Assembly: GCA_031425155.1 (NCBI GenBank)
Contig: JANPIV010000044.1
Coordinates: forward strand, 7,413-71,412
Direction of reading: 5' to 3'
Length of the DNA stretch: 64,000 nucleotides
From: Saprospirales bacterium
Lineage (GTDB): Bacteria; Bacteroidota; Bacteroidia; Chitinophagales; Saprospiraceae
Below are positions 41,165 through 42,434 of this stretch, piece after piece; the first letter of the stretch is position 1; every line of letters begins with the position of its first letter. The position numbers and the translations under genes were made by a program. Below the pieces are notes generated by a model. The model did not search any database, was not told the origin of the DNA, and was given only the letters and a program-made list of their open reading frames with translations.

Positions 41165-41292
41165 ACAAATGATTGCTTTACTAAAAAAAGCAACATAAGA
41201 AAAGGCTGCCATCCAGATTCTGGTGAAGTAGCCGGATAGGTAGGAATGGTTTTGCACTGGCAGGTTTCCCGCAACGGGCGACCTGCTTTTTT
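41165..41292 (+). ncRNA. Candidate ~125-nt orphan transcript or small RNA
   Basis: Bounded by the orphan promoter and a + strand intrinsic terminator. No credible ORF. Convergent with the regulator gene. Confidence 0.3.
41260..41292 (+). terminator. Rho-independent terminator (T-run on the + strand only)
   Basis: GCAGGT..CCCG/CGGG..ACCTGC stem followed by T6. Confidence 0.6.
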
Positions 41293-42331
41293 AATTGGGC
41301 AACATCCGTAGTTTTTCCACTTTCAAGACGGTTACTACCCCGTCTTTAATTTCCAGCATATTTTCGTTTTTAAAGTCGGTGAGGGTGCGGATGAGCGTCT
41401 CTTTGGCCGTGCCCGCCAATGCCGCCAGGTCCTCACGGAGCAGGTGGATGACCGGCCCATTCTGATCGCACAGGTGCGTGAGTGCCGTAGCGACCCGTTT
41501 GCGCACGGAATTGTAGGCCAGTTCGATGAGCTGCTGTTCGCGCTCGGCAATGTGGCTGGCGAGCATCTTGATAAAACGGGCATTCACATCGCGATTACCA
41601 AACACCAGGGCGGCGAAGTCCTGCTTTGGCACCAGTTTGATGCTGCAATCTTCGAGAGCCGCCGCGCTTTCGGCGTAGGAGTCTTCTTTGAAAAGAGCCA
41701 GAAAGCCCAGAAAATCACCCATTTGGGCCACTTTCACGATCAGTTCCCGTCCGTCATCGCTGGTCTTGAAGATTTTGACCTTACCCCTTTCTACAAAATA
41801 CAGCCAGCGAGGATGCTCGCCTTCCCGGAAAATCAGGTCTTTTTTCTTATAATGCCGCAGCTCCCGATTCTCCGACAGGTGTTTGATGGCTTCCAGGGCC
41901 CGGGCTTCATCTATAAAGCGTTCGAGCGAGCCACCTGATTGCGCCGAGGCGGCCCGCAGCCGTTCGCTTTTTTTCAGGCGGCTTTCGATGGTTTGCAGCA
42001 AGGCCACATCATCGAAGGGTTTGGTCACGTAGTCGTCGGCCCCAAGTGACATACCCCGGCGGAAGTCTTCCTTTTCGGCTTTGGCAGTAAGAAAAATAAA
42101 AGGAATGTCCGCAGTCTTGACCTGTCGGCTGAGGATGTGCAGCACCCCGTAGCCGTCCAGTTCGGGCATCATGATGTCGCACAAGATCAGGTCGGGTAGC
42201 TCGGCCTGGGCTTTGGCAGCCCCCATTTTGCCATTTTCGGCGGTGAGGGCCTCATAACCGCTAAGGGTCAGAATTTCAGCGAGATTCTCGCGAACGTCCA
42301 AATTGTCTTCGATGACGAGAATTTTCTTCAT
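41291..42331 (-). CDS. Hybrid response regulator: receiver domain fused to a Crp/Fnr-type cNMP-binding domain and HTH
   Basis: ATG 42329-42331 (MKKILVIEDN). REC with acceptor Asp in LILCDIMMP. cNMP-binding fold and a C-terminal HTH_Crp. No FNR Cys cluster. Confidence 0.85.
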   Translation of the reverse strand: MKKILVIEDNLDVRENLAEILTLSGYEALTAENGKMGAAKAQAELPDLILCDIMMPELDGYGVLHILSRQVKTADIPFIFLTAKAEKEDFRRGMSLGADDYVTKPFDDVALLQTIESRLKKSERLRAASAQSGGSLERFIDEARALEAIKHLSENRELRHYKKKDLIFREGEHPRWLYFVERGKVKIFKTSDDGRELIVKVAQMGDFLGFLALFKEDSYAESAAALEDCSIKLVPKQDFAALVFGNRDVNARFIKMLASHIAEREQQLIELAYNSVRKRVATALTHLCDQNGPVIHLLREDLAALAGTAKETLIRTLTDFKNENMLEIKDGVVTVLKVEKLRMLPN

Positions 42332-42369
42332 GGTAATGCAAAAGTAAAAACTTGCGTCACTTCTCCTAC

Positions 42370-42434
42370 TGATTTCTATCAATCTCCGCGCTAAGCGGCG
42401 TCATAGTGGCGCAAAGCGACCAGATGCACCTTTG
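42370..42434 (+). promoter_or_regulatory. Dual-box promoter of the CBS/USP operon, divergent from the regulator gene
   Basis: Box1 TGATTTCTATCA at 42370, box2 TAAGCGGCGTCA at 42392, -7 CACCTTTG at 42427. Confidence 0.5.

Follow-up and report, generated by a model that had tools for sequence, protein, structure and literature searches.

A receiver-Crp/Fnr hybrid regulator with paired-box promoters as candidate DNA-binding end of an oxygen-responsive two-component system in Bacteroidota

In alpha-proteobacteria, the FixL-FixJ-FixK pathway runs from a heme-PAS kinase through a REC-LuxR regulator and ends with a DNA-binding protein of the Crp/Fnr type that has no cofactor of its own. FixK recognises an FNR-like box, close to TTGAT-N4-ATCAA, and its targets include the cbb3 oxidase genes (fixNOQP/GHIS) and the nos genes; in Bradyrhizobium, activation of the latter is reported to depend mainly on FixK2 (PMC5582078). 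A related arrangement is described here for a stretch of 64,000 nucleotides (the window) from contig JANPIV010000044.1 of a Saprospirales bacterium (assembly GCA_031425155.1). The window encodes a response regulator in which a receiver domain (REC) is fused to a Crp/Fnr-type DNA-binding half, hereafter the REC-Crp regulator, and it carries pairs of FNR-like boxes at a fixed distance from each other upstream of oxidase, nosZ and other genes. The best explanation of the comparisons reported below is that this protein would be the output component, binding DNA, of a two-component system that responds to oxygen and is typical of aerobic or facultative Bacteroidota.

The likeness to FixL-FixJ-FixK extends to the kinases encoded next to relatives of the regulator, since the PAS domain of these kinases is a homolog of the heme domain of FixL, with a conserved proximal His. 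The differences concern the receiver, which is here fused to the Crp/Fnr scaffold, so that the FixJ step and the transcriptional control of fixK would be bypassed, and the promoters, which have a Bacteroidota -7 element (TAnnTTTG) and apparently obligate pairs of boxes 22 bp apart. Because of the fused receiver and of a weak match to FixK2 (4I2O; E = 1e-7), an identity of the regulator with FixK was rejected. By analogy, the system is, in its logic, that of FixLJ-FixK with the FixJ and FixK steps merged in one polypeptide. With class II activation by FNR and CRP, the present system shares the succession of a beta-barrel and a helix-turn-helix (HTH), the conserved Glu/Arg pair, the TGA-N6-TCA palindrome and a proximal site whose centre would be about 41 bp upstream of the inferred start. 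In contrast with these proteins, it has no Cys cluster, no cAMP residues, a predicted input through receiver phosphorylation and a second dimer site abutting the first. The regulator is not FNR proper, since it is devoid of the Fe-S Cys cluster, and it is not CRP proper, since the cAMP contacts E72, R82 and S83 of CRP are replaced by F, A and E. We know of no tandem 22-bp sites among characterised CRP- or FNR-dependent promoters.

Two other systems deserve comparison. The DosS/DosT-DosR (DevR) system of Mycobacterium also leads from a heme-based kinase to a response regulator, is autoregulated and controls a regulon rich in universal stress proteins (USPs); in relatives of the present locus, alpha-crystallin/HSP20 and ribosome hibernation genes are linked as well. 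DosR uses multiple adjacent boxes. However, it has an HTH of the NarL/LuxR type, kinases that sense through GAF and not PAS domains, and an unrelated DNA motif. Identity with DosR/DevR was rejected because the output domain is HTH_Crp_2, the likeness being confined to regulon content. As to clade II nosZ clusters, Kern and Simon reportedly described, in 2016 (as cited in PMC11879220), the Crp/Fnr-type regulators NssA/B/C of the clade II nos genes of Wolinella succinogenes; control of such a cluster by the Crp/Fnr family is common to the two cases. NssA/B/C are one-component regulators devoid of a receiver domain, and they belong to a different phylum. To our knowledge, a dual-box layout has not been described for them.

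Bacteroidota with clade II nosZ, whose product breaks down the greenhouse gas N2O, are important sinks of this gas in soils and wastewater, and some are under test as inoculants. A full-text literature search, with most subscription journals outside its coverage, returned no published account of the function of a REC-Crp regulator, of the dual-box motif or of its regulon in Bacteroidota, and the searched literature names no regulator for the induction of nosZ and of the high-affinity oxidase in these bacteria. One study of CRP/FNR meta-regulons assigned a homolog from a Saprospiraceae metagenome-assembled genome (MAG) to MalR-like carbon sensing, with the receiver domain left unmentioned. RgzAB of F. 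johnsoniae, considered as a described relative, is unrelated, RgzB being a single-domain regulator. In a study of N2O mitigation with Cloacibacterium, bet-hedging induction of nosZ is reported and its regulator is unnamed (PMC11168931).

Paired boxes at promoters and around the regulator gene

The initial annotation of the window had listed six promoters, each with two 12-nt boxes of the form T(G/A/C)A-N6-TCA followed by a -7 element. All 12 boxes were found at the positions given there, every one on the + strand, and their starts are 22 bp apart at all six sites (Table 1). The left half-site is TGA in eight boxes, TAA in three and TCA in one. The pattern TNA-N6-TCA-N10-TNA-N6-TCA has eight matches in the window, as compared with 0.04 +/- 0.20 in 100 dinucleotide-preserving shuffles; these eight matches are the six sites, two palindromic ones being scored on both strands. 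When all box pairs of the window at distances of up to 60 bp are considered, 22 bp is the sole enriched distance, with 7 pairs versus 1-2 for any other. Counted from the start of box 2, the -7 element starts 35 nt downstream at five sites and 36 nt downstream at the remaining one; sites 4, 5 and 6 share the identical element GCACCTTTGTG. The element of site 1 is weak (CCATCTTG); the corresponding promoter of L011, one of the loci of relatives introduced below and designated by L-numbers, has CCATTTTG. All six sites are intergenic and oriented towards the genes to which they had been assigned. Thus, the coordinates, the 22-bp spacing and its enrichment over shuffled sequence, the placement of the -7 element and the target genes all stand as proposed. 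The count of six promoters does not, as further promoters are present and sites 3 and 6 appear to be bidirectional.

These additions come from a weight matrix for the two boxes that was trained on other genomes only and then run on the window. The six sites take its top ranks with scores of 19.5-34.6, the highest being that of site 6 (34.6), whereas shuffled sequence always scores below 18. Beyond these, the matrix brings out a seventh promoter and two weaker ones, as well as promoters in reverse orientation for the regulator gene and the Rrf2 gene. The seventh promoter serves a second CBS-pair gene (9912-10358, - strand), downstream of which lies a P-type ATPase gene on the same strand (7191-9734). 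Behind the reverse promoter candidate at 41013-41077 stands the gene of a secreted Kelch-like protein of 261 aa (40211-40996, - strand), and the candidate at 18300-18364, which has a low matrix score, is tentative. If only a proximal box and a correctly placed -7 element are demanded, the window has 8 hits versus 0.18 in shuffles. Since all of these 8 hits are preceded, at 22 bp, by at least a half box, the second box of the pair looks obligatory.

The initial annotation had tied the boxes to the regulator by inference. This link is supported by 80 genomic loci that contain homologs of the regulator (47-91% identity, 1.2 Mb in total). They represent Saprospiraceae, Lewinellaceae, Chitinophagales, Cytophagales, Flavobacteriales and Sphingobacteriales, and the cultured carriers among them are Fulvivirga kasyanovii, F. 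marina, Chryseolinea lacunae and Parachryseolinea silvisoli. Over this total length, the strict dual box gives 152 oriented hits at 22 bp versus 6-29 at each of 15 other spacings. About 46-47 footprints with the 22-bp spacing are located within 250 bp of the ends of the regulator gene, that is 11.6 per 10 kb, as compared with 0.29 per 10 kb at 5-10 kb from the gene. Control spacings stay at ~0.1 per 10 kb throughout, with 0-3 footprints within 250 bp of the gene; small peaks at 18, 21, 23 and 27 bp were rejected as alternative spacings because they do not cluster near the regulator gene. Another Crp/Fnr-like open reading frame (ORF) is present in only one locus of the 80. Judged from sequence alone, this pattern is what comparative genomics typically shows for a transcription factor that regulates its own gene through a nearby site. 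The REC-Crp protein is most likely the factor acting at the boxes, to which it is predicted to bind, and the paired-box REC-Crp design recurs, as far as the compared loci indicate, across the phylum Bacteroidota. One locus stands apart by its label: L061 (contig JBLNAY010000325.1), with a homolog of 52% identity and dual boxes nearby, belongs to a MAG labelled Candidatus Dadabacteria. This homolog outside Bacteroidota could reflect mis-binning or horizontal transfer.

The same loci bear on the geometry of activation. The motif.A..TTTG stands 35/36 nt past the start of box 2 in 57/160 oriented hits and nearly nowhere else. In the aligned promoters of relatives, conservation is limited to the half-sites (T)TGAY-N4-RTCA(W) and to the -7 element, and the spacers vary; no TTTG is conserved at -33 in these aligned dual-box promoters. 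If TAnnTTTG is taken as centred at -7, the offset of 35-36 nt would place the centre of the box at about -40.5 to -41.5, in agreement with the class II position that had been suggested for it.

At site 6, the layout also reaches the regulator gene itself. Read on the - strand, box A is followed by 22-23 nt, TACTTTTG, 7 nt and the ATG of the regulator. Among the relatives with 83% identity or more, nearly all have the boxes at -38/-39 from the regulator start, and the layout TTGATTGAAATCA-N~23-TAnnTTTG-N~7-ATG is kept in almost all of them. By this conservation, site 6 is a predicted bidirectional promoter, each box being proximal in one direction and distal in the other. Because the -7 element lies 7 nt before the ATG, the mRNA of the regulator would be nearly leaderless. 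Use of a dual box in both directions is also found in L019, L020, L038, L040 and L065. At site 3, the - strand carries TATATTTA upstream of the Rrf2 gene (30915-31346), 4 nt from its ATG, and this site is probably bidirectional as well, towards the Rrf2 gene. Finally, in the loci with a linked kinase, a dual box is often found upstream of the kinase gene, which suggests that the whole system would be autoregulated.

The regulator protein and the kinases of its relatives

Three Pfam domains are recognised in the regulator: Response_reg at residues 4-115 (PF00072, E = 2e-26), cNMP_binding at 159-243 (PF00027, E = 2e-22) and HTH_Crp_2 at 278-343 (PF13545, E = 2e-12). The ORF list and the Pfam scan agree with the initial annotation that it is the only protein of the window with a Crp/Fnr-type HTH, and it is also the only one with a receiver domain. 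Residue conservation was read from 77 aligned homologs. In the receiver, the acidic pair E8 and D9, the phospho-acceptor D52 and the Lys K104 are kept in 77/77, and position 82 is T in 70 and S in 7. In the HTH, R299, G307, E311 and R315 are invariant. The recognition helix, K/T-E-T/S-x-x-R, aligns with R180-E181-T182-x-x-R185 of CRP, E311 and R315 being the equivalents of E181/R185 in CRP and of E209/R213 in FNR. In CRP and FNR, this Glu and this Arg of the recognition helix read the TGA core.

An FNR-type Cys cluster is absent from the 77 homologs, their N-terminus being the receiver domain. The only conserved Cys is C51, which adjoins the phospho-acceptor Asp; C229 occurs in 31/77. The beta-barrel is the least conserved region across the family. 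Since cAMP contacts and Cys cluster are both missing and the barrel is variable, the input of the regulator is most likely phosphorylation instead of a small ligand. By its domains, the regulator can be assigned both to the Crp/Fnr superfamily and to the response regulators. Solved relatives of the scaffold are 4EV0, 2GAU and CRP (E = 1e-21 to 1e-16). The receiver domains nearest to the REC are of the OmpR/PhoB type, and receivers of this type dimerise upon phosphorylation. A PDB search returned no chain spanning the REC and Crp halves together. In NCBIfam there is no dedicated model for the hybrid, and the matches are domain-level and far below cut-off. The hybrid nature is already apparent in automatic annotation, where such proteins are named 'response regulator' or 'CheY-like chemotaxis protein/CRP-like cAMP-binding protein'.

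What phosphorylates the regulator would have to be encoded outside the window, as the initial annotation had assumed, and indeed no histidine kinase is encoded in the 64 kb. The relatives are informative in this respect. When a same-strand ORF lies directly upstream of the regulator gene, as is the case in 46 loci, it encodes a PAS-HisKA-HATPase kinase in 41 of them. The adjacent kinases, present in about half of the 80 loci, are cytoplasmic and may be divided into two classes. In class A (16 loci, and in addition L024 and L026, in which an extra ORF lies between the two genes), the PAS domain has the FixL heme-pocket signature HD.Y...IIGIGRE. Residues 20-143 of the L024 kinase match 1DP6, the heme domain of B. 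japonicum FixL, with E = 8e-27 and with RH and IGIGR conserved; the next matches are R. meliloti FixL and E. coli DosP. In class B (~18 loci), the His is kept in a DosP-like context, and the solved relatives of the PAS domain are FixL (4e-10) and DosP (2e-7), one unannotated kinase entry being otherwise significant. All aligned kinases of both classes keep the proximal His. Their matches are under the NCBIfam equivalog cut-off for FixL (156 vs 850 bits), and they are therefore to be considered as relatives of FixL, not as orthologs.

In Fulvivirga kasyanovii (L046:2400-5667), the gene of a double-PAS kinase stands before those of a single-domain receiver, HSP20 and a BON-domain protein. This receiver and the REC of the hybrid regulator share 52% identity, and an orphan REC-Crp gene is located 6 kb off. 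This locus may represent a split or branched version of the pathway.

Low-oxygen activation and its alternatives

From these elements, the following mechanism may be envisaged. At low O2, a FixL-like kinase with a heme-PAS domain would phosphorylate Asp52 of the regulator. Once phosphorylated, the regulator would occupy each pair of boxes with two dimers, which the distance of 22 bp (about two helical turns) would put on one face of the DNA, with a cooperativity probably provided by the OmpR/PhoB-like receiver domains. The proximal dimer, centred near -41, would take the place of a -33 element and activate transcription in the class II manner. The predicted targets are ccoS-ccoNOQP-GH, cytochrome c-nosZ-nosLDFY, the YceI cluster, the two CBS genes and the thioredoxin-USP fusion (Trx-USP). 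To these would be added the Kelch-like secreted protein, probably the Rrf2 regulator, and a small RNA of ~125 nt. Activation of its own near-leaderless gene by the regulator would create a positive feedback. We give this model of low-oxygen activation as a whole a probability of about 0.7.

Several observations weigh against it. The model is built throughout from sequence comparison, and about 8 of the 80 loci have no dual box even when the weight matrix is used. The class B PAS domain has the His without the IIGIGR motif of FixL, which makes heme binding less certain in that class. In the subfamily to which the window copy belongs (27 loci, identity of at least 70%), a kinase gene is never adjacent, and the regulator gene is always divergent from the CBS and Trx-USP genes. 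In L016, a kinase two genes off is of class B; the closest kinase-linked relatives, of 55-57% identity, use class A. As the window copy is in this orphan subfamily, its kinase would be encoded elsewhere in the genome, and we are only slightly inclined, by family relationship, to regard it as a heme-PAS kinase. The formation of a tetramer is deduced solely from the fixed spacing, and activation was preferred to repression in view of the geometry and by analogy with FNR and FixK. In addition, orphan and kinase-linked paralogs may share one genome, in which case either could occupy the boxes.

This last point leads to the idea that the boxes are read by a different Crp/Fnr protein, be it a classical Fe-S FNR, a sensor of NO (Dnr/NnrR/HcpR type) or a paralog with a linked kinase, and that the REC-Crp gene is a mere member of the regulon. 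The regulator gene does lie behind a dual box, as any regulon member would, and the window-type copy is devoid of an adjacent kinase. Saprospiraceae MAGs are found in both the window-type group and the kinase-linked group of 55% identity, so that paralogs in one genome are possible, and the DNA-reading residues are identical between the two groups. However, the REC-Crp gene is the only constant beside the dual boxes in 80 loci of otherwise unrelated content, where a second Crp-like ORF was met just once. Box density drops ~40-fold beyond 250 bp from the regulator gene, and the motif type fits the HTH of the regulator with its invariant Glu/Arg. A different reader of the boxes is thus quite improbable. 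It might also be argued that the dual layout has no regulatory meaning and reflects a copied promoter cassette, a repeat element or chance due to composition, and the identical GCACCTTTGTG at three sites would fit with this. But half-sites and -7 element are conserved when the spacers are not, the chance expectation is 0.04, and the layout recurs in distant orders and in different gene contexts; such a reading is refuted for practical purposes.

Another matter is whether the regulator, if it binds the boxes, follows the logic proposed above. It might repress by sitting over the -33 region, where a box could block RNA polymerase, or respond to NO/CO, redox, acetyl phosphate or an unrelated kinase. 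The heme-PAS sensors FixL and DosP are indeed known to bind NO and CO as well, an Rrf2 gene (NsrR/IscR-like) shares site 3, and the kinase of the window copy, being not adjacent, is a matter of family-level inference. Against this, the targets form the classical set activated by FixK/FNR at low O2 (cbb3 oxidase and its assembly, nosZ, USPs, hibernation factor), the site position fits class II activation, and no TTTG is conserved at -33, as expected of activator-dependent promoters. We consider a different logic of this sort unlikely and retain activation at low oxygen as the preferred reading.

With this reading, the regulator family, its motif of strict geometry and its probable heme-PAS kinase provide a concrete candidate for the control of nosZ and of the oxidase. 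The fusion of a receiver onto a Crp/Fnr scaffold would be a different evolutionary route to the FixLJ-FixK logic, and the promoters would offer a rare example of an activator-dependent architecture for the unusual sigma factor of Bacteroidota. It is tempting to imagine, although this is doubtful at present, that aerobic Bacteroidota rely on the REC-Crp family as their main oxygen switch, which would work in a manner so far described for no Crp/Fnr protein: a phosphorylation-driven tetramer on 22-bp boxes that fires in one or both directions, is possibly bistable through its own gene and includes a hypoxia-induced small RNA comparable to FnrS in its logic. If true, a bistable circuit would give a molecular basis to the bet-hedging induction of clade II nosZ in Cloacibacterium (PMC11168931).

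Target genes, a candidate small RNA and neighbouring features

In relatives, genes behind a dual box encode CBS proteins, many USPs, the kinases and regulators, a CcoI-type Cu-ATPase, a D-2-hydroxyacid dehydrogenase, hemerythrin, OsmC and a ribosome hibernation factor. Taken with the genes of the window (Table 1), the predicted regulon is a micro-oxic respiration and dormancy set, like the FixK regulon and, in its content, like the DosR regulon. The hypoxia or dormancy character put forward in the initial annotation is reinforced by these additional targets. Of its 'low-oxygen/N2O regulon', the low-oxygen part is kept; 'N2O regulon' is too narrow, since the evidence favours O2, or a different ligand of heme, for the signal, and nosZ is one target among several. 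A dense hypoxia island was seen in L065:1-21041, from a Saprospiraceae MAG, where about ten dual-box footprints occur in 21 kb around an operon of a FixL-like kinase and the regulator, upstream of several USPs and of a ribosome hibernation factor.

In all window-type loci examined, the gene pair encoding the CBS protein and the Thioredoxin_3+USP fusion is divergent from the regulator gene, which suggests that the three form a fixed functional trio. The fusion gene adjoins the CBS gene in the window and in each of these loci, L016, L085 and L086 among them. At site 2, the 455-aa protein that had been called a porin has no Pfam match.

Table 1. Promoter elements, regulator, candidate small RNA and predicted target genes in the window
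Feature	Position	Strand	Details
Seventh promoter	10380..10444	-	GTACAAATATCA-N10-TGACCCTCGTCA, then CAACTTTG at 35 nt; degenerate box 1 GTACAAATATCA 10433-10444; box 2 TGACCCTCGTCA 10411-10422; -7 CAACTTTG 10380-10387
Site 1, dual box	10844..10877	+	weak -7 at 10901-10908; pattern and matrix
Genes behind site 1	10949 to 17499	+	ccoS 10949-11131; fused ccoNO 11134-13326; ccoP, ccoG, fixH, DsbD_2 gene
Weak promoter candidate	18300..18364	-	half box 1; TGATAATTATCA 18331-18342; then TTTCTTTG; upstream of DUF998 gene 17585-18274
Site 2, dual box	26475..26508	+	-7 at 26533-26540; pattern and matrix
Genes behind site 2	from 26557	+	YceI 26557-27126; 455-aa protein; second YceI-like gene
Site 3, dual box, fully palindromic	31383..31416	both	+ strand -7 TACTTTTG at 31440-31447
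Site 4, dual box	31865..31898	+	-7 at 31922-31929; pattern and matrix
Genes behind site 4	32101 to 40209	+	cytochrome c 32101-32568; nosZ 32644-34644; nosL, nosD, cupin, globin, fasciclin, nosF, nosY
Reverse promoter candidate	41013..41077	-	half box TGACCAATATTG; box TGATGACCATCA 41044-41055; -7 CACTTTTG 41013-41020
Site 5, dual box	41096..41129	+	TCACCAAAGTCA / TGATGCAGGTCA; -7 at 41153-41160; kept in metagenome locus L081
Candidate small RNA, ~125 nt	41166..41294	+	from site 5; converges on regulator stop codon, overlapping it
REC-Crp/Fnr hybrid response regulator, 346 aa	41291..42331	-	start is ATG at 42331, not upstream TTG
-7 element of the regulator's own promoter	42340..42347	-	TACTTTTG; 34 nt past box A start (- strand), 7 nt before ATG
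Site 6, dual box, predicted bidirectional	42370..42403	both	box A TGATTTCTATCA 42370-42381; box B TAAGCGGCGTCA 42392-42403
-7 element of the CBS/Trx-USP promoter	42427..42434	+	CACCTTTG; 35 nt past box B start
Genes behind site 6	42466 to 44144	+	CBS-pair gene 42466-42933; Thioredoxin_3+USP fusion gene 42930-44144

Site 5 is an orphan promoter with no plausible ORF after it, in the stretch 41166-41294. This stretch would fold with a minimum free energy of -42.7 kcal/mol (z = -3.3) and ends, in the + strand orientation, in a strong hairpin (41259-41287) followed by a T-run; a simple terminator scanner missed this hairpin and the RNA fold showed it. No Rfam match was obtained for it, even at E = 1, and the 80 genome loci hold no homolog, because synteny downstream of the regulator differs there. 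The only syntenic locus found, the metagenome locus L081, has diverged in the 5' part of the stretch; its dual box, -7 element and terminator are conserved, as are the 3' ~105 nt (~94% identity). With moderate confidence, the stretch is proposed as a candidate small RNA under the control of the regulator.

Other features of the window may be mentioned. Between site 3 and the nosZ promoter (31448-31790, + strand), an AT-rich ORF of 65 aa (31483-31680) with no obvious homolog precedes a hairpin with a 14-bp stem (31742-31785); this region could produce a second short regulated transcript or a small protein. Within the nos cluster, a cupin, a truncated (bacterial-like) globin and a fasciclin protein are encoded between nosD and nosF (37272-38664, + strand), which is unusual for a clade II nos cluster. 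Directly downstream of the CBS/Trx-USP operon and convergent with it, a gene on the - strand (44169-44624) encodes a LytTR protein of 151 aa without receiver. Further on, a DUF805b RNA (RF02914; 46348-46380, + strand) is the only Rfam match of the window at the gathering threshold (36.8 bits, cut-off 35.6); it stands just upstream of an ORF (46395-47258) that has DUF5648, not DUF805. Finally, the region 47356-49192 (+ strand) encodes a protein with effector-associated domain 11 (EAD11) and TPR, then a protein in which the CXXCXGXG zinc-finger domain of DnaJ is the only domain; this region appears to belong to a conflict or effector-associated island that has no relation to the oxygen regulon.

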